64,000 bases of DNA. It comes from a virus (taxonomy: Duplodnaviria > Heunggongvirae > Uroviricota > Caudoviricetes). The stretch lies in IMG/VR virus record IMGVR_UViG_3300029998_000021; one strand, given 5' to 3'. The translations under genes were made by a program, and so were the position numbers. Below are positions 3,765-47,503 of this stretch, in pieces (the stretch's first letter is position 1; every line of letters starts with the position of its first letter). Below the pieces are notes generated by a model. That model made no database searches. It was not told where the DNA came from and saw only the letters and a program-made list of their open reading frames with translations.

Positions 3765-5018
3765 GTGAAAGTAATTAAATATACATATAAATTTAGATTA
3801 AAACCAACAAATGACCAGAAAATTCTTTTAAATAAGCATTTTGGTTCTGTTAGATGGACTTATAATTATTTTTTAAACCAACGAAAAGAAGAATACCTTA
3901 ATAATAAAAAATCAATAACCTACAATAAACAATCAGAATATCTAACACAATTAAAGAAAAATGAAGAAACCGAATGGCTAAAAGAAATAAACAGTCAAAC
4001 ATTACAATACTCTCTTAAATGTTTAGATACTGCTTATTCAGGGTTTTTTGCTGGAAGATCAAAACTTCCAAAATTTAAATCAAGGAAAAATAGAAATTCA
4101 TTTACTGTACCGCAATTCGTGTCTGTAAATAAAAATAAATTATTTATACCAAAATTTAGAGAAATGGGTATAGAAATAATAATGAATAGAAAAATTAAAG
4201 GAACAATTAAACATTGTTCTATATCAAAAACTTCTACTGGAAAATATTTTGTATCAATTTTAACAGAGCAAGAACATCAACCAACAACAAAATCAAATCA
4301 ATCAGCAGGAATAGATTTAGGAATAAAAGACTTTTTAGTATTATCTAATGGAACGAAAATCAAGAACCATAGATTTTTAAAACACTACGAAAGGACGTTA
4401 GCACTAAATCAAAAACATCTATCAAAGAAGACTAAAGGATCAAATCGTTATGAAAAACAAAGATTAAAAGTTGCTAAAATTCATGAAAAAATAACAAACT
4501 CAAGAATGGATTTAATTCATAAAACAACTAATAATCTAATTCGTAATTTTGATGTTATTTATCTGGAAGATTTAAATATTAAAGGAATGAGCAAAAGATG
4601 TAAGTCAAAACAAGATAAAAATGGTAAATATTTACCCAATAATCAATCAGCAAAATCAGGATTGAATAAATCCATTTTAGATGTTAGTTGGGGTAAATTT
4701 ATTGAGGTTCTAGAATATAAAGCCTCTTGGAATGATAAGCAAGTCATTCATATAAATAGATTTTTTCCATCTTCTAAGGCTTGTTCTAAGTGTGGTTGTA
4801 TTAATAATAATCTAGCACTTAAAGATAGAACTTGGATTTGTCCTAAATGTGGTTCAGTTCATGATAGAGATGTGAATGCAGCAATAAATATCCTTAACGA
4901 AGGATATCGTAAAAATATATCAGATGGAACGTCTGATTACGAGCGTGGAGCAAAAATAAGACCAATTTCGGTTGGCACAAGCAATGAAACGTTTAAAGAG
5001 AAGGAACTTGTTTCCTGA
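3765..5018 (+). CDS. tnpB: TnpB (IS605 OrfB-type RNA-guided nuclease), GTG start
   Basis: RuvC motifs AGIDLGIKDF, IYLEDLNIKGM, RDVNAAINI; Zn finger CSKCGC...CPKCG; N-term KFRLKPTNDQ. Confidence 0.9.
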   Translation: MKVIKYTYKFRLKPTNDQKILLNKHFGSVRWTYNYFLNQRKEEYLNNKKSITYNKQSEYLTQLKKNEETEWLKEINSQTLQYSLKCLDTAYSGFFAGRSKLPKFKSRKNRNSFTVPQFVSVNKNKLFIPKFREMGIEIIMNRKIKGTIKHCSISKTSTGKYFVSILTEQEHQPTTKSNQSAGIDLGIKDFLVLSNGTKIKNHRFLKHYERTLALNQKHLSKKTKGSNRYEKQRLKVAKIHEKITNSRMDLIHKTTNNLIRNFDVIYLEDLNIKGMSKRCKSKQDKNGKYLPNNQSAKSGLNKSILDVSWGKFIEVLEYKASWNDKQVIHINRFFPSSKACSKCGCINNNLALKDRTWICPKCGSVHDRDVNAAINILNEGYRKNISDGTSDYERGAKIRPISVGTSNETFKEKELVS

Positions 5019-20050: not shown

Positions 20051-20057
20051 AATAGCG

Positions 20058-20424
20058 TGGAACCGGCGGGATTCAAACCCGCGTCCAAAATAGTCTTTCG
20101 GCATCTTCTACAAGTTTAGTTTCATTTTTCTAAATAAAACAAAAATAAATAATTTTTATTTAGGTAATTATTAAATCCTATAACATTTTTATATCAGTAT
20201 AAAATAGTTTACTAAAAAAACTAGTCTGGTTTTCTTGTTTAGGCTACAGAAACTTCATTCTCAACGACAGATCCAACAACTGAAATTGTTGATTTAGAAG
20301 AAACTACGTGCGTATGTACATTGCCATTTATTGTTTGTATCCATTAATTTATTAATCGCTTATTAGATTATGCGATACTTGCTGATAACCTCATTTCACA
20401 ATCCTGTCAAATTCAGTCGATCCC
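20058..20424 (-). ncRNA. ssrA: tmRNA (ssrA), about 367 nt, CCA not encoded
   Basis: 5' GGGAUCGACUGAAUUUGACAGGAUUGUGAAAUGAGG parallels E. coli GGGGCUGAUUCUGGAUUCGACGGGAUUUGCGAAACCC; 3' GGACGCGGGUUUGAAUCCCGCCGGUUCCA versus E. coli GGACGCGGGUUCAACUCCCGCCAGCUCCA; 7-bp acceptor pairing GGGAUCG/CGGUUCC. Confidence 0.75.
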
Positions 20425-20557: not shown

Positions 20558-21805
20558 TTATTTATGAAGTTTTACTATTTTAAAAGCTTTTTCTAAAATA
20601 GTAATTTCGTCAAAAAGATTATACTTTTTAACAACTCTTGATAAATCAAGAGGCTCGTTCATAGAAGCAATGTGATTTCCAAACCATCTGTTCAATATGT
20701 TTATAGCTGAATTTAAATCACGATCTATAATTATGGTGTCTGATAACTGAACTTTCCGATCTTCCAATTTGATCTTATTATCAAATAATTTTCCAGTTAA
20801 ACAGTTAATTTGTGTTGTCCATTTTTCATCAATTTTTTCTAAGTTTATATTTTTTGCTTGACACTTATAACCAAGAAATTGTAAAAACATTGTAATGTTT
20901 GATTTATGAAATGATTTACGAATTCCTTTTTTATTTTCATTTACTCCTTCTGTAGACATCAATCGTTTAACCGTCAGGTCACCAATTACAATTGTGTTGT
21001 AATTCATATTCACTAATTTTTTGCTTTGAATATGTAAAGCTTGTTTTACTTGTTCGTTCTTCTTATGATAACATTTATTCAATACGTTATTTAACAATAG
21101 ATTCCTATTTGATCCTTTGATAGTTTTACTTCTTTTTTTTTGTATTTTAGCAATTTGTTTTTGATAATAATCATTAATTTTTTTAGATTTATTTTTTAAT
21201 ACTATCATTTCACCATTATTATCAACACCCGTTGCCAATTTTGTTAAGCCTAAATCAATTGCAAGAATTCTGGTTTTAATATTTAAATCATTCTTATATT
21301 CTATTTTATCATCAATAACTAAATCACATAACCATTTATTCCTAATAAATTTAATTCTTATTTCCTTAATATTTAATGATTTTATATCTATTTTTGATTT
21401 ATATTCAAATGGAATTTGATTTATAAAAAATCTATTTTTCTTTATCATCCAACCAGATTGATTAAAAGATATAGTATGAAAATTATTATCCTCTATTTTT
21501 CTTGGCGGTCTAGCATTTTTATCTTTTTTGATTAAATTAAAGAATGATCTATAAGAACCATATAATTCTGTTGCTATAGTTTGTATTGCCTTTGAATTTA
21601 ATTTTTTCCAATCTGTACATTCTTCCTTTAACTGAGGAAGTAAATTATGTAAATCAAAATTATTAAATATAGTTTTGGTTGTATTGTATTTTTCTGTTTG
21701 AATATCAATCAATTTATTCCATATATCTTTACGAATATCAGACAATTTTTGTAATTCAAAAATTTGGTCTTTTTCTGGAAATAATCTTATTTGATATGTT
21801 TTCAT
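20558..21805 (-). CDS. tnpB: TnpB-like nuclease with degenerate zinc finger
   Basis: N-term QIRLFPEKDQ, RuvC motifs AIDLGLTK, VIGDLTVKRL, DRDLNSAINI; CxxC pairs absent (INCLTGK only). Confidence 0.7.
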   Translation of the reverse strand: MKTYQIRLFPEKDQIFELQKLSDIRKDIWNKLIDIQTEKYNTTKTIFNNFDLHNLLPQLKEECTDWKKLNSKAIQTIATELYGSYRSFFNLIKKDKNARPPRKIEDNNFHTISFNQSGWMIKKNRFFINQIPFEYKSKIDIKSLNIKEIRIKFIRNKWLCDLVIDDKIEYKNDLNIKTRILAIDLGLTKLATGVDNNGEMIVLKNKSKKINDYYQKQIAKIQKKRSKTIKGSNRNLLLNNVLNKCYHKKNEQVKQALHIQSKKLVNMNYNTIVIGDLTVKRLMSTEGVNENKKGIRKSFHKSNITMFLQFLGYKCQAKNINLEKIDEKWTTQINCLTGKLFDNKIKLEDRKVQLSDTIIIDRDLNSAINILNRWFGNHIASMNEPLDLSRVVKKYNLFDEITILEKAFKIVKLHK

Positions 21806-37741: not shown

Positions 37742-39127
37742 TTACGCGGTAATTGATTTATACCTTTCACTATTTATAGTTTTCAACATCAAACTAGCTG
37801 GAGTATCAATACTTCCTGATAATACAGATTTTAATATTGCTGGACTGAAACCTGAAACTAATCCTACATTCTTTGCTTTAAAGTTTGCAGGCACATTACC
37901 AAGTCTACCATTAACATTCCAGAAAACAATATCTGGCATTTTATAACCAGCAGTTGAATACATTCTCTGAATCATACTCAATGCAGTATCAGAATTATTC
38001 TGAACGCAACCATTAAATTCCATATCTGATATTATCAAAATTTTAGTTGGCATTTCACTTTCTGGAATATTGTTTTGAGTTGCTTTATTCAAAATCAACT
38101 TATATACAGATTCTAGATTAGTGCTCATACCCCATTCAGCACGTTCCAACTGTTTTAATCTTTCATACAATGATCCTTTCAAATACTGCATTTGTGGATT
38201 ACTTGAAAATGTAATAAAAGCGTCTTTAAAAATACTTTTATTCCTTTCAGAAATATACACACCCAATGCAACTGACACAGACATTGGAAGTCCTGACATA
38301 CTTCCTGATACATCGCAAACTGGAATGACTCTCTCATTCGAATCTGCCATAAAATCAGGAAGATTAATCCATTGTGCTTCAACTGCTCTCTTATCTTCAT
38401 TTCTCTTCCAAGCGTCATATAACATATGTGGAAACAAAACACCAGCTTTAATTTCTTCCTTACCTTCGTGAACCAATTCAATAAACTCATTAAAACGATT
38501 CATATCATTCTTTAAGAATGCTTTTCTATACTTATTCATAGCAACTGAAGGCACATGAGAGTAAGTAATTTCTTCCCAATCCTTTGCGCACATTTTTTGC
38601 TCTACCGTGTTTGATAACCCAACAACAAGTTGTCTGTATTCCTTTGGGGTCAATCCCATATACTTTCTAACCTTATTAGCAAAACCATCTTGTCTTGGAA
38701 GCCATTTTGCAAGCAAACCATTTTCTTTATCCAAACCTTCTTTAATCAAAGGAAGAACAAGTTTTTCATCTAACTCAAAAATATCATCCCAACGACCATA
38801 TTCTGGTACATATTTGATATTTTTTTCAAGATATGATAAATAATTTTTATTCAAAAATTTTGAGCAAACTCTAAAGAATCTTCTTTCTCCAGCTCCACCT
38901 CTTGGATCACGAGCCCAAAACATAAGTTTTAATGCCACTGTTGGATCTTCCACAATTGCTTTTTGAAAAAGCAATTCAATATCATTATCTGACATTTTCC
39001 TTGAAGCACCAGCTAAAAAGAACATATCAACATTTGAATTCAAACTAGTTGAATTTGTTACCATACCATTTGCTGTTGAAGCATCTTCTTGTCTTACAGC
39101 ATTTACCAATTTTGATTTAGATTCCAT
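37742..39127 (-). CDS. rsr: Ro60/Rsr orthologue (TROVE plus vWA domains); true start probably ATG 39127 (ORF track used TTG 39169)
   Basis: WARDPRGGAGERRFF, VLFPHMLYDAW (Ro HPFHIL-like), MIDAS VCDVSGSMSG, ILIISDMEFNG, GLVSGFSPAIL all parallel Ro60. Confidence 0.7.
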   Translation of the reverse strand: MESKSKLVNAVRQEDASTANGMVTNSTSLNSNVDMFFLAGASRKMSDNDIELLFQKAIVEDPTVALKLMFWARDPRGGAGERRFFRVCSKFLNKNYLSYLEKNIKYVPEYGRWDDIFELDEKLVLPLIKEGLDKENGLLAKWLPRQDGFANKVRKYMGLTPKEYRQLVVGLSNTVEQKMCAKDWEEITYSHVPSVAMNKYRKAFLKNDMNRFNEFIELVHEGKEEIKAGVLFPHMLYDAWKRNEDKRAVEAQWINLPDFMADSNERVIPVCDVSGSMSGLPMSVSVALGVYISERNKSIFKDAFITFSSNPQMQYLKGSLYERLKQLERAEWGMSTNLESVYKLILNKATQNNIPESEMPTKILIISDMEFNGCVQNNSDTALSMIQRMYSTAGYKMPDIVFWNVNGRLGNVPANFKAKNVGLVSGFSPAILKSVLSGSIDTPASLMLKTINSERYKSITA

Positions 39128-39159
39128 AATTATTTGTTTTGTTTTTGTTATTAAAAATA

Positions 39160-39193
39160 AAAATCCCAACTAAAATTCATTAGTTGGGATTTT
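39160..39193 (-). terminator. 13-bp hairpin AAAATCCCAACTA/TAGTTGGGATTTT followed by a U-run on the minus strand
   Basis: Would terminate a minus-strand transcript immediately upstream of rsr. Confidence 0.5.
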
Positions 39194-42865: not shown

Positions 42866-43864
42866 ATGATAGAAAATGATTTTTTATTATTTATATATAG
42901 AATAAAAAACATTATGAAAAAAATAACAACTGATCAAGCAAAAGAAAGAATATTATTAAATAATTCTAATATTATATTCCTAAGTGATTTTTTAGGCACA
43001 TATAATAAAAGTAAATTTAAATGCTTAATTTGTAACCATGAATGGACAACTACCGCAAAATATGTAATAAATGGTGATAGTGGCTGTCCTGAGTGTGGAA
43101 AGAAAAAAGCAAAAGAAACCATTAAATATAATCTAACTACTGAAGATTTTAAAAAAAAAGTGTATAAAAAATACGGAGATAATATAAATATCATTGGAAA
43201 ATATATTAATGCTATAACTAGAATAGAATCTCAATGTAACATTTGTGATCATATATGGAAACCATATGCAAAAAACTTAATAGCAGGAACAGCAGGTTGC
43301 TATAAATGTAGATGTAAAAATACAGGTGTAAAAATAAGAAAATCACCTGAAAAATTTTTAAATGAAATAAATAAAATACACAATGATAGAATATCTATAT
43401 TAGGAGAATATAAAACCTGTAATAGTAAAATGAATGTTAAATGTAATGTTTGCGGTAATTTATGGACAAGTAATACTGCAAGAGAATTATTAAGAAGAGG
43501 TTGCCCAAAATGCAATTTATCAAAAGGTGAATTATTAATATCAGATATATTAAAAAAATTAAAAATAAATTATAATGATCAACATATTATTAATGGATTA
43601 AAAACTGAAGATAATGGTACACCATCTTTTGATTTTGTGTTATATGATGAGTACAATAATGTAAAAACTATTATAGAATATGATGGTCTTCAGCATTTTA
43701 AAGCAGTAAAAAGATGGGGAGGTATTAAAAGGCTTGAAAGACAACAAAAAATAGACAAATTTAAAAATAATTATTGTGGCGAAAACAATATAAAAATGAT
43801 CAGAGTGCCATATACAGATTTAAAAAAAATAAATATTGAATACATTAAAAATTTATTAAAATAA
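42866..43864 (+). CDS. homing-endonuclease-like protein: three Zn-ribbon repeats plus C-terminal Vsr/DUF559-like PD-(D/E)XK domain
   Basis: Repeats FKCLICNHEWTTTAKYVINGDSGCPECG / CNICDHIWKPYAKNLIAGTAGCYKC / CNVCGNLWTSNTARELLRRGCPKC; C-term FDFVLYDEYNNVKTIIEYDGLQHF; paralog of 53542..54450. Confidence 0.6.
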   Translation: MIENDFLLFIYRIKNIMKKITTDQAKERILLNNSNIIFLSDFLGTYNKSKFKCLICNHEWTTTAKYVINGDSGCPECGKKKAKETIKYNLTTEDFKKKVYKKYGDNINIIGKYINAITRIESQCNICDHIWKPYAKNLIAGTAGCYKCRCKNTGVKIRKSPEKFLNEINKIHNDRISILGEYKTCNSKMNVKCNVCGNLWTSNTARELLRRGCPKCNLSKGELLISDILKKLKINYNDQHIINGLKTEDNGTPSFDFVLYDEYNNVKTIIEYDGLQHFKAVKRWGGIKRLERQQKIDKFKNNYCGENNIKMIRVPYTDLKKINIEYIKNLLK

Positions 43865-43880
43865 AAAATAATATCTAAGA

Positions 43881-44010
43881 TTTAGAAAAGGGCACCAGAT
43901 GGGATTCGAACCCACATTTTTCATTCCGTTATGCACATAGAGTTTAGGAAACTCCGCCATTACAGGTGCGTGGTGCACGGCGGGCGGCTCGCCAGCCGTG
44001 CGTTCCCTAT
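43881..44010 (-). ncRNA. non-canonical tRNA-like RNA 'B' (T-arm plus acceptor stem, no D-arm) with GC-rich 5' hairpin
   Basis: 3' GUGGGUUCGAAUCCCAUCUGGUGC; acceptor GCACCUG/CUGGUGC (one U-U); internal GGAGU-UUCCUAA-ACUCU arm; GC hairpin GCACGGC...GCCGUGC in a 25%-GC genome. Confidence 0.35.
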
Positions 44011-44115
44011 CCGTGCATATATTGTAAAAAAAATGGACTTCGGACTTGTAAAATACCGAAATGAGATCCTTTAACCCGGTCACTAACTTAAAATGTAATC
44101 TATCCATTTTTTTTG

Positions 44116-44447: not shown

Positions 44448-44521
44448 TGATCCTGATGAGACTCGAACTCATAACCTACAGATTAGAAATCTGTTGCTCT
44501 ATCCAATTGAGCTACAAGACC
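44448..44521 (-). tRNA. tRNA-Arg(UCU)
   Basis: GGUCUUGUAGCUCAAUUGGAUAGAGCAACAGAUUUCUAAUCUGUAGGUUAUGAGUUCGAGUCUCAUCAGGAUCA; canonical cloverleaf. Confidence 0.8.
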
Positions 44522-44526
44522 TTATG

Positions 44527-44600
44527 AGCACCCAGACGGACTCGAACCGCCAACATCCTGATTACAAGTCAGGCACTCTACCAATTAAAGCTATGGGTGC
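44527..44600 (-). tRNA. tRNA-Thr(UGU)
   Basis: Acceptor GCACCCA/UGGGUGC perfect; anticodon arm CCUGA-CUUGUAA-UCAGG; T-loop UUCGAGU. Confidence 0.8.
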
Positions 44601-45056
44601 AATAATTCTATTTCCTTTACAATGCGTGTCTAATGTTGCATTACAATTAGGACACACTATTCTTAAATTATCTAATCTATGATCATCATGAACACCATTT
44701 ATATGATCTAATATTAAACTCATTTTTTTACCTTGCCAATTTTCATCTTGACCACACAATTCACATTTTCTTTCTTTAATTCCTTCATTATATAATCTTT
44801 CTTTCAAATATGTTGTCCCAAAAGTAGAATTCTCAACCAATATTTCTAATAAACATTTTTTATTAAAATTATCCATCTTCTTATCTTTATTAATATTAAG
44901 ATGTGCAATATCTATTTCAAATAAATTAGCGTATTTTAATATAGTTCTATAATTTGCGCCTTGATGTGTTAATTCTAATTTATTAATAACCTCTATTTTT
45001 GTTGCCGAATTTTTTATTATATTTTCTAAATTTTCTTTATTCCATCTCTTATTCAT
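44562..45056 (-). CDS. HNH homing endonuclease (free-standing, in tRNA island)
   Basis: CELCGQ...HINGVHDDHRLDNLRIVCPNCN; 3' 39 nt overlap the tRNA-Thr 5' half. Confidence 0.6.
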   Translation of the reverse strand: MNKRWNKENLENIIKNSATKIEVINKLELTHQGANYRTILKYANLFEIDIAHLNINKDKKMDNFNKKCLLEILVENSTFGTTYLKERLYNEGIKERKCELCGQDENWQGKKMSLILDHINGVHDDHRLDNLRIVCPNCNATLDTHCKGNRIIAPIALIGRVPDL

Positions 45057-45150: not shown

Positions 45151-45290
45151 TTACAGAAGCAAAAAATTAATTGAGGCTCATTTCGGTAACGATCCGATTT
45201 CCCTGCGATACAACGGCAGACATCATCCACTAAATGCTTAAGAGCCAAAATATTAAACTTAATCTTGTACAATAAACTTGATAGGTTTAT

Positions 45291-45999: not shown

Positions 46000-46902
46000 T
46001 TACACTACACAACCCATATAAATTTCTTTTAATTCTTCCAAATCTATATATGTTTTAATATCTTTTTCATAATATTTTCCATATTTATCTTCAAATATTT
46101 CTATTTTTTCTAACAATTCTTCAATTGTCAATGAACAATCATCAGATTTACTTTGATTTTTCTTATTCACAATCAATTCACAATTTGCTGGATGTGCAAG
46201 TAATAATGGATTTATTAATTTTCGAAATCCTCCTTTTACTGACAACATATGATCTCGACTCACACCATCAACATTATCACCATTATTTTTAGCCTTATAC
46301 CAGCCAAATTTTTCAATCAATGTAAAATCAAATTCAGTATTAAAATCTTTCAAATTGAATTTAAATTTTGATAACACATAATATAACTCAAACTCTGTTT
46401 TATTTTTAGAATGATATTCGTTTTTACATTTTATATTACAAAAAATTCTATTTCTATATCTAAATTCTAATACCGAATCACAATTAAAACATAATTTAGA
46501 ATTTTCATAATATAATTCCTTTTCTTTAACGTATTTAATTTTTTCCGAATTTAATAAATTTTTATAAGCAGATTCTATTAAACTTTTTCTTCCATCTTCA
46601 CTTAAATTATGCTTTATACCCTTTCTTAATTTGTTATTAAATTTTGCTGAACAAGAATGATCACAAAAGTCCGAATTTAACAATCTTTTTTCAAAGGATA
46701 TTATTTCACCACAAAATTTACAGATATTAGGATTTTTCAAATATTCTTTTTCAGCCAAAACACTTTTATTTTTAAAAATTTCTTTAACCTTACTATAATC
46801 TCTTAAATTTTTATTAACATATATATTTCTACATTTCAGAGAACAATACACTCTTTTATCATCTATTAAATTTTCACACTCATCGTTTTTACACTTTTTC
46901 AT
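46000..46902 (-). CDS. HNH endonuclease with multiple N-terminal CxxC zinc fingers
   Basis: CKNDEC...CSLKC, CKFCG, CFNCD; C-term GVSRDHMLSVKGGF...NCELIVNKKN (HNH: H, N, N). Confidence 0.55.
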   Translation of the reverse strand: MKKCKNDECENLIDDKRVYCSLKCRNIYVNKNLRDYSKVKEIFKNKSVLAEKEYLKNPNICKFCGEIISFEKRLLNSDFCDHSCSAKFNNKLRKGIKHNLSEDGRKSLIESAYKNLLNSEKIKYVKEKELYYENSKLCFNCDSVLEFRYRNRIFCNIKCKNEYHSKNKTEFELYYVLSKFKFNLKDFNTEFDFTLIEKFGWYKAKNNGDNVDGVSRDHMLSVKGGFRKLINPLLLAHPANCELIVNKKNQSKSDDCSLTIEELLEKIEIFEDKYGKYYEKDIKTYIDLEELKEIYMGCVV

Positions 46903-46939: not shown

Positions 46940-47045
46940 GTGGAAAGTTTATTTTATGAACCCTGTGGAGACGAGGATAATCGAAATCCCCTCACGAACA
47001 TTGCAAGTGTTCATCGCCTTAGCCTTGGAACATGCGCCCCCATTT
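46940..47045 (-). repeat. structured element Y (homolog of X), T-arm-like GGGGAU-UUCGAUU-AUCCUC
   Basis: See X. Confidence 0.35.
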
Positions 47046-47111
47046 GTGAAGATTCACATCTTCACTTTATTCTAAATCTTAAATATGTCAAATAACTCTT
47101 TATTGTGATCC

Positions 47112-47260
47112 AGAAGGGATTCGAACCCTCATTTTCATTTCCGTTATGCACATCTCGCTTAGAAGGCGTAGCCATTACAGGACCAATATAATGTGTGTCT
47201 ATCCACACCTGTCGCAGTCGATTAACTAAAACTTTTCACAGTTTCGATACACATATTCAA
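47112..47260 (-). ncRNA. non-canonical tRNA-like RNA 'A' (paralog of B) with 5' hairpin GUGUG-GAUAGA-CACAC
   Basis: Acceptor GGUCCUG/CUGGAUC pairs with the same U-U as B but compensatory changes at two other positions; conserved CUGUAAUGGC...AUGUGCAUAACGGAAAUGAAAAUG...GGGUUCGAAUCCC. Confidence 0.35.
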
Positions 47261-47379: not shown

Positions 47380-47465
47380 TATCGGTACTATGAAATTCTA
47401 ACAGTCTCCTACTCGTCGGGTATGTACGATTTGAACGTCTCCCCAAAATCCCAAATTTTGGATGC
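47380..47465 (-). ncRNA. degenerate tRNA-like element (acceptor CGGGUAU/AUACCCG, weak T-arm)
   Basis: Acceptor pairing perfect but T-stem only 3 bp. Confidence 0.2.
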
Positions 47466-47503
47466 AACCAAGTTACACCTCATACCCGTTTTTTTTATTA
47501 AAC

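Follow-up and report, generated by a model that had tools for sequence, protein, structure and literature searches.

A 64,000-nucleotide (nt) stretch of tailed-phage DNA (IMG/VR record IMGVR_UViG_3300029998_000021, Caudoviricetes; its full length is called the window here) carries on its minus strand two transfer RNA (tRNA)-like elements, A and B. Both belong to a family of phage sequences in which every helix and a pair resembling the Levitt 15-48 pair covary, whose members carry the identity bases of their isotypes and lie in tRNA arrays. We consider it likely that A, which would read AGA and AGG, and B, which would read AGG, are functional tRNA-Arg genes of this widespread family, predicted to fold around a three-way junction. 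The broader proposition seems on balance to hold as well: that very different tailed phages encode active tRNAs with a non-cloverleaf three-way junction, in which the D loop and the 5' strand of the D stem have moved to the 3' side of the anticodon arm and the tertiary core of the L-shape is retained.

Elements A and B

Element A occupies positions 47106..47184 and resembles a tRNA-Arg(UCU), with G1 at 47184 and the discriminator base, an A, at 47106; element B occupies 43891..43969 and resembles a tRNA-Arg(CCU), with G1 at 43969 and the discriminator, a C, at 43891. Both are on the minus strand, and CCA is encoded in neither. The conserved elements are 79 nt long each, and not 130 and 149 nt as proposed in an earlier note, a first description of this DNA made from its letters alone. 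Read along the minus strand, B is GCACCUG-UAAUGGC-GGAGU-UUCCUAA-ACUCU-AUGUGCAUAACGGAAUGAAAAAU-GUGGG-UUCGAAU-CCCAU-CUGGUGC-C (43969->43891) and A is GGUCCUG-UAAUGGC-UACGC-CUUCUAA-GCGAG-AUGUGCAUAACGGAAAUGAAAAU-GAGGG-UUCGAAU-CCCUU-CUGGAUC-A (47184->47106). The features that the earlier note had listed are all present, namely the shared motifs, the acceptor helix of 7 base pairs (bp) with a U-U mismatch, the compensatory changes at two of its pairs, the 7-nt connector, the anticodon-like arms and a 23-nt region 5' of the T arm; the base before GGG, given there as G or U, is U in B and A in A. The 15-mer ATGTGCATAACGGAA has exactly two occurrences in the window.

The acceptor 5' strand of A (GGUCCUG, 47178..47184) pairs with CUGGAUC at 47107-47113, and that of B (GCACCUG, 43963..43969) with CUGGUGC at 43892-43898. 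Both helices hold a U6-U67 mismatch, and they differ by double-sided changes at 2:71 (C-G in B, G-U in A) and 3:70 (A-U in B, U-A in A). The copy in the 735-kb phage LR756501 (L001, 6004-6080) has C-G at 3:70. The 5' connector, U8 A9 A-UGG-C in both elements (47171..47177 in A, 43956..43962 in B), carries the 5' strand of a short long-range helix, called helix X below, and leads to the anticodon arm, which is UACGC-CUUCUAA-GCGAG in A (47154..47170, with one A-A mismatch in the stem) and GGAGU-UUCCUAA-ACUCU in B (43939..43955). The anticodon of B is CCU (43946-43948), as first described, and the CUUCUAA arm that had been called weaker is found in A; its anticodon, which that description had not supplied, is UCU (47161-47163).

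On the 3' side of the anticodon arm, the 3' strand of helix X is GCA in both elements (47147-47149 in A, 43932-43934 in B), a segment that covaries across the family. In A, U11 would pair with A38 and G12 with C37, and G13 stands opposite G36 as a mismatch. There follow a D-loop-like strand, UAACGGA (47140-47146 in A, 43925-43931 in B), with equivalents of A14, R15, G18, G19 and A20, and a linker (AAUGAAAAU at 47131..47139 in A, AUGAAAAAU at 43916-43924 in B) that ends in U, at 47131 in A, the equivalent of Y48. The T arm is GAGGG-UUCGAAU-CCCUU in A (47114-47130) and GUGGG-UUCGAAU-CCCAU in B (43899-43915), and the acceptor 3' strand follows it directly. The 23 nt that had been taken for an extra region carry the 3' strand of a covarying D-stem surrogate together with the D-loop-like motif.

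A phage family with one covarying architecture

We ran five pattern scans of IMG/VR, each of which fixed another motif, and fetched several hundred loci; a rule-based parser applied to these loci returned 188 distinct members in 154 loci, nearly all of them phage contigs. A covariance model (R1) was built from a MAFFT alignment of 116 distinct members and separated the family cleanly from ordinary tRNAs. In the window, R1 scored A at 76.2 bits and B at 73.0 bits, found no other high site and gave canonical tRNAs 33 bits at most. In 100 loci fetched by a pattern that constrained neither the anticodon nor the 3' connector, members scored at least 53 bits and everything else at most 40 bits. Members are 73-83 nt long, have a GC content of about 39-63%, come from phages with very different genome sizes and are surrounded by tRNA arrays (median of 8 ARAGORN tRNAs per locus). 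A 79-nt sequence identical to B is present in viral contigs L003 and L013.

The members share one order of parts. The acceptor 5' strand is followed by U8-A9-N, a 3-nt 5' strand of helix X, 1-2 nt and the anticodon arm; then come 3-8 nt, the 3-nt 3' strand of helix X, the strand U-A-R-Y-(N)-G-G-A, a linker of 4-11 nt ending in Y, the T arm, the acceptor 3' strand and N73. Across the family the base after GG is A or U. No D hairpin is found between positions 9 and 26 in the family, the gap from acceptor to anticodon stem being only 7-8 nt. The region between the anticodon arm and the T arm, 17-26 nt in length, is the most conserved part of the molecule, and its U-A-R..GG motif is conserved in all members. 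Sequence equivalents of the tertiary core (U8, A14, R15-Y48, G18-G19) are likewise present.

Covariation in homologous loci, which the earlier note had suggested as a check, was found in all proposed stems among the 116 aligned members. Overall, 94.5% of cells were paired, compared to 61.9% after shuffling (reached in 0 of 500 shuffles) and 34-44% when partners were slid. Double-sided changes were seen in 20 of the 21 pairs, and the covariance-model alignment agrees. The acceptor stem was paired in 97.8% of cells with covariation at all 7 pairs, the anticodon stem in 93.8% with covariation at all 5, and the T stem in 99% with covariation at 4 of 5; the T loop is UUCGAAU in both A and B. The anticodon loop has 7 nt, with U33 and A37 as invariant columns and the 3' A-A invariant or nearly so.

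In helix X, bases 4-6 (or 5-7) of the 5' connector pair with the three that immediately precede U-A-R, and both strands covary. Over 58 distinct connector combinations, 155 of 174 pairs were complementary, compared to 106.5 +/- 4.6 after permutation (0 of 20000 permutations), and the helix was fully paired in 39 of the 58, where permutation leads one to expect 10.3. The pair types include CGG/CCG, CAG/CUG, CAC/GUG, CUC/GAG, CGC/GCG, CGA/UCG, CCC/GGG and ACC/GGU, as seen in the connectors UAUCGGA/CCG, UAUCAGA/CUG, UACCACA/GUG, UAUCUCA/GAG, UACCGCC/GCG, UAUCGAC/UCG, UAUCCCC/GGG and UAUACCC/GGU. The R of U-A-R and the last base of the linker behave as a Levitt 15-48 pair: they are A-U in 171 and G-C in 12 of the 188 members, with 5 exceptions (AU 102 and GC 11 by the count of the alignment tool). 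Because helix X and the other helices covary, the molecule is best drawn as a three-way junction, whose branches are the acceptor stem, the T arm and an anticodon stem extended by helix X. A different pairing, of 'CAU' with the AUG before the T stem as a variable-arm hairpin, was dropped because the wider family pairs the bases before U-A-R with the 5' connector and because the 'AU' before the T stem corresponds to Y48.

Standard finders miss the family

ARAGORN called neither A nor B at default settings, and its intron option (-i) and -mt mode made no call at either at the default threshold. At that threshold, neither element is folded by ARAGORN as a standard or an intron-containing tRNA in the general, organellar and intron modes. 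The Rfam tRNA model (RF00005) gave A 24.9 bits against a gathering score of 29, and the sole Rfam match to B was tRNA-Sec at 20.3 bits. Across the family, ARAGORN at default settings called 6 of 120 members, misjudging their boundaries or, once, the anticodon, and missed the other 114. With the threshold lowered (-ps90), it proposed B as a 93-nt tRNA-Arg(cct) that starts upstream of the conserved G1; we rejected this call, as the upstream region is not conserved in L003, and the alternative upstream acceptor strand GCACCA, used for B by the minimum free energy (MFE) fold, fails in the same way. Single-sequence MFE folds of A and B favour a CUGU/ACGG pairing that invades the acceptor stem; the covariation of pairs 6:67 and 7:66 in the family led us to reject them.

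Genes that finders pass over in this way might be decaying tRNA pseudogenes, or fragments duplicated by recombination or homing-endonuclease activity in the array. The homing-endonuclease genes interspersed in the array and the presence of other poorly scoring tRNA genes in the window would fit such an origin, but a single architecture in 188 distinct sequences, with compensatory changes in every helix, makes it scarcely credible. The earlier note had also argued for a conserved structure over decayed tRNAs, and in this it was right. The acceptor stem does covary, a D hairpin is lacking at the usual place, and standard finders fail on both elements.

It is also very improbable that A and B are precursors turned into a standard cloverleaf by an intron-like excision or an RNA rearrangement. 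Introns are possible in phage and bacterial tRNA genes, and the 17-26 nt between the anticodon and T arms resemble an insertion. However, the ARAGORN intron search found nothing at A or B, and the supposed insert is the most conserved part of the molecule, which pairs and covaries with the 5' connector. Since the D-loop-like motif follows the anticodon arm, no simple excision could place a D hairpin in front of that arm.

Isotypes and identity bases

The anticodons of the 188 members are of Arg type (UCU in 112, ACG in 19, CCU in 14, UCG in 13 and GCG in 1) or of Ile type (UAU in 14, GAU in 10 and CAU in 5), and the anticodon-blind scan returned the same isotypes. One member with the same architecture has the anticodon UAC (Val; L511, 7364, plus strand). 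All isotypes in the family are served by class Ia synthetases, and the fold seems restricted to such isotypes: Arg, Ile, and possibly Met/Ile2 and Val. As a speculation, this bias could arise if the added strand lay on the face of the variable loop, since class I enzymes do not cover that side.

In bacteria, Arg identity involves A20, C35, U/G36 and A/G73, and Ile identity involves U20 and A73 among others (Giege and Eriani 2023, PMC9976931). At the equivalent of position 20, the base after GG, 157 of 159 Arg types have A and 27 of 29 Ile/CAU types have U. Every Arg-type member carries C35 and U/G36. The base N73 varies among the Arg types (73 members with G, 51 with A, 33 with U and 2 with C), and all 29 Ile/CAU types have A there; an encoded CCA comes directly after N73 in 76 of the 188 members. 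Element A has the full bacterial Arg set. Judged from these bases, the pattern is what selection by arginyl-tRNA synthetase (ArgRS) and isoleucyl-tRNA synthetase (IleRS) would produce, and it would be needless for a nuclease decoy or a molecule resembling a Y RNA.

Genomic setting and the possibility of a mimic

The window has a GC content of about 25% and comes from an AT-rich huge phage, whose closest public relatives are the 735-kb phage and related huge phages of the LR7565xx series. Its minus-strand tRNA array, at about 43.9-47.5 kb, holds 9 tRNAs by ARAGORN at default settings and 11 Rfam tRNA matches at or above the gathering score; B is the final gene of the array. In 32 long open reading frames of the window, AGA makes up 79% and AGG 8% of the Arg codons, so that A (UCU) and B (CCU) would address the main Arg codons.

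The earlier note had judged the two elements to be closer to mimics than to functional tRNAs. Under such an account they would be non-translational, serving as decoys or sponges for tRNA-targeting nucleases or modification enzymes, or as ligands of a Ro-like protein in the manner of YrlA. We regard this as unlikely, although several observations speak for it. A canonical tRNA-Arg(UCU) is also encoded in the window (44448-44521, 70.7 bits), which makes A redundant for decoding capacity and leaves room for a non-translational role. Among the members examined, however, ARAGORN called a tRNA of matching anticodon within the fetched locus for only 21 of 120, a count that includes about 5 calls of the members themselves, so most members are without such a canonical counterpart there; some phage loci even have three Arg isoacceptors of the non-cloverleaf form within the fetched stretch. 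A decoy for an anticodon nuclease would likewise require an authentic anticodon loop. But the isotype-dependent A or U at the position-20 equivalent, the A73 of all Ile types and the encoded CCA are features read by synthetases and by translation, not by a nuclease, and together with the authentic anticodon loop, the Arg and Ile anticodons and the 15-48-like pair they run counter to the earlier judgement.

The variant with a Ro-like partner draws on a gene at 37742-39169 (minus strand), which matches the PHROG 850 'RNA-binding protein' (E 7e-137) and Pfam DUF2828 and DUF7788, with a vWA-like DVSGSMS motif; in Streptomyces phage Gilson, too, a gene annotated as 'RNA-binding protein' adjoins the tRNA-Arg genes and lies 1.5 kb from a family member. 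However, of about 540 fetched loci only 4 have a homolog of the window protein, and the Gilson protein is barely similar to it. A link between the family and a Ro-like or PHROG 850 protein was dropped, as there is no general co-occurrence. The likeness to YrlA proposed in the earlier note fared no better: the Rfam YrlA model has no match to A or B even at E<=10, and A and B have no Ro-binding helix because their termini form a plain 7-bp acceptor stem.

Genes for HNH-type homing endonucleases lie in or beside the array at 42866-43864 (plus), 44562-45056 (minus) and 46000-46902 (minus), and the members of phages PAK_P2 and Mildred21 likewise adjoin HNH genes. Several other tRNA genes of the window score poorly, and three deviant tRNA-like genes, all on the minus strand (46965-47041, 45173-45246 and 47415-47488), are called by ARAGORN only at a lowered threshold. 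The first of them is Ala-like, with G3-U70, anticodon UGC and an oversized T loop, and a similar sequence follows a family member in L002 and L014. The array may hold other non-standard tRNA classes. Outside the window, viral contigs L107, L120, L134 and L161 carry another odd tRNA-like gene, with a normal D arm and about 37 nt in place of the anticodon arm (GGCACCAGUCUGAGGGCAUAAGGAUUUUUGGUGCAGG). Elsewhere in the window, a transfer-messenger RNA gene (20055-20424, minus, 63.5 bits) adjoins a gene of the TnpB/IS605 OrfB type (20558-21805, minus), and a second TnpB-type gene lies at 3765-5018 (plus).

Hairpins upstream of A and B

The GC-rich 5' hairpins that the earlier note had included in the two elements do exist, at 43974-44017 for B and 47193-47208 for A, but neither is part of the conserved element. 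The hairpin of B (minus strand), directly 5' of the element, is a nested structure of about 44 nt with an outer stem, a GGG/CCC pairing and an inner 5-bp hairpin. Only the nearest relatives, L003 and L013, have it too, with compensatory changes (GCACGG/CCGUGC versus GUCGG/CCGAC, and GGC/GCC versus UGC/GCA); it matches no Rfam family and is absent from other family members. The nearest relative has neither the hairpin of A nor its 93-nt spacer. Both 5' hairpins are lineage-specific spacers, and that of B could be a processing signal or a small RNA. Between this GC-rich element and a tRNA-Gly gene lies a further hairpin of 85 nt (44028-44112, minus), flanked by a run of A and a run of U; it is absent from the equivalent spacer of L003 and looks like a small inserted element.

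Distribution in cultured phages and databases

BLAST searches against GenBank phages found members in Pseudomonas phages (PAK_P2, whose member lies at about NC_022967:89782-89856, phiPsa397 and P. putida phages), in Streptomyces phages (Gilson, Mildred21 and Jay2Jay among others), and in Agrobacterium phage Atu_ph04, Stenotrophomonas phage SOVA965, Limnohabitans phage DC31, Vibrio phage D260, Microbacterium phages Zooman and Pumpernickel, and the crAss-like Kehishuvirus tikkala. Almost all of these members are without annotation in their GenBank records. The 'tRNA-Phe(gaa)' of Mildred21 (NC_042008: 91367-91442; L318, 1495-1570) is itself a member, with the loop CUUCGAA, the Arg anticodon UCG and an R1 score of 73.4 bits, and its label is probably the mis-fold of a gene finder. 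As members are missed, unannotated or mislabelled, the Arg and Ile tRNA repertoires of phages, and the codon-usage analyses that depend on them, are under-counted.

A scan of genome contigs was swamped by the variable arms of class II tRNAs (CCCGUAAGGGA) and gave only four members, on contigs from metagenome-assembled genomes (MAGs; L320, L323, L368 and L415), a result that is uninformative on presence or absence in cellular chromosomes. A UCU member was also seen on a 14.9-kb contig labelled as a giant-virus MAG (L485, GVMAG), which may be a mis-binned phage contig.

How the RNAs may work, and what weighs against this

From these comparisons we infer a three-dimensional fold and a path through processing, aminoacylation and use on the ribosome. 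Helix X would stack on the anticodon stem as a surrogate of the D stem. The strand after it would supply the equivalents of A14 and R15, as partners of U8 and Y48 respectively, of G18-G19, for docking onto the T loop, and of position 20. With the core contacts supplied by helix X and the D-loop-like strand, the core of the L-shape would be kept, and segment 10-21 would have moved to the 3' side of the anticodon arm. A and B would be transcribed together with the rest of the minus-strand tRNA array, both of their ends would be processed, and the copies in the window would receive their CCA post-transcriptionally. The host ArgRS could then charge them through the A20 equivalent, C35 and U36, and the charged RNAs would decode the AGR codons that dominate the phage genes. 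Why phages would keep such a fold is a matter of speculation; it might offer escape from host factors that recognise the canonical D arm, for instance tRNA-targeting defence nucleases.

Several points weigh against the reading of A and B as functional tRNA-Arg genes. The evidence is entirely comparative. The collecting patterns fixed the T loop (GGTTCGA was required) and one further motif at a time, and since the members are phylogenetically related, the counts do not represent independent events. In the subfamily of the window (UAAUGGC ... GCA-UAACGG), helix X consists of two standard pairs and the G-G mismatch; C14-G34 and G13-U35, with a bulged G, would also be possible there and have no support from covariation. 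In energy, the proposed folds of A and B exceed the MFE by 2.2-3.1 kcal/mol. The RNAalifold prediction contains the acceptor, anticodon and T helices but lacks the 3-bp helix X, so that helix X is deduced from the covariation counts only. The C73 of B is rare (2 of 159 Arg types) and is no known bacterial Arg determinant. The canonical tRNA-Arg(UCU) of the window and the resulting redundancy of A belong here as well.

If the reading is right, a large natural RNA family used by bacterial viruses appears to reach the tRNA L-shape by a different secondary structure, the first such non-cloverleaf fold outside organelles. The novelty, as far as sequences can indicate it, would be a tRNA with a new secondary-structure topology. 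In open-access full text we found no description of such phage tRNAs, and an earlier report is possible outside open access. The covariation of helix X and of the 15-48-like pair makes the claim of an alternative fold directly testable, and members are carried by cultured phages with tractable hosts, such as PAK_P2 (P. aeruginosa), the Streptomyces BE-type phages and Atu_ph04 (Agrobacterium). A natural scaffold with a rearranged core is also of interest as an orthogonal tRNA chassis.

Comparison with known systems

Canonical bacterial and phage tRNA-Arg, such as T4 tRNA-Arg(UCU) and the gene at 44448-44521 of the window, shares with the family the 7-bp acceptor, the anticodon arm with a 5-bp stem and a 7-nt loop, C35, U/G36, a T arm of the GUUCGAAUC type, U8, a motif like A14-R15...G18-G19-A20, a pair like R15-Y48 and the location in phage arrays. 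The family differs in having no D hairpin; a long-range helix of 3 bp, within which the anticodon arm is enclosed, serves as the D-stem surrogate. The D-loop-like strand occupies the usual site of the variable loop, so the junction is three-way and not four-way.

In class II tRNAs and allo-tRNAs the D arm is normal, and the extra region folds into a hairpin of its own. The family, by contrast, has no hairpin between the anticodon and T arms: the region there pairs back to the 5' connector and carries a D-loop motif, and the acceptor/T branch is the standard 7/5. What the family has in common with class II tRNAs (Leu, Ser, Tyr) and with allo-tRNAs, described with 8/4 or 9/3 acceptor branches from metagenome mining (Mukai et al., PMC5389517), is the presence of extra nucleotides between these two arms.

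Two non-translational RNAs had been named as likenesses in the earlier note. With YrlA (RF02553) the family shares a tRNA-like T arm, an acceptor-like stem and possible encoding by phages, and a gene for a protein of Ro-like architecture is present in the window. YrlA has no anticodon arm and carries a long Ro-binding helix instead, whereas A and B have an authentic anticodon arm. The species 1 and 2 RNAs of phage T4 (rnaC and rnaD) are small stable RNAs that end a phage tRNA cluster, and rnaC has a tRNA-like 3' T arm. They are, however, 119-139 nt long, and R1, run with filters off on the T4 locus, gave rnaC 19.0 bits and no match to rnaD, compared to at least 53 bits for members, which does not support the suggested relationship.

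Mitochondrial tRNAs without a D arm are shortened, have lost the contacts between G18-G19 and the T loop, and require adapted partner proteins. Members of the phage family are of full length (73-83 nt) and keep the D-loop-like, T-loop and Levitt-like elements, and they presumably use standard bacterial enzymes. The likeness to metazoan mitochondrial tRNA-Ser(AGY), and to other mitochondrial tRNAs lacking the D arm (see PMC4013460), lies in the absence of a D hairpin, the short connector between acceptor and anticodon stem and, for tRNA-Ser(AGY), the decoding of AGN codons.

The order of segments is also permuted in tRNA genes of the red alga Cyanidioschyzon merolae. There the permutation is one of the gene, and a normal cloverleaf results once the transcript is processed. 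Members of the phage family have normal termini, and their permutation, of segment 10-21, would persist in the mature RNA.

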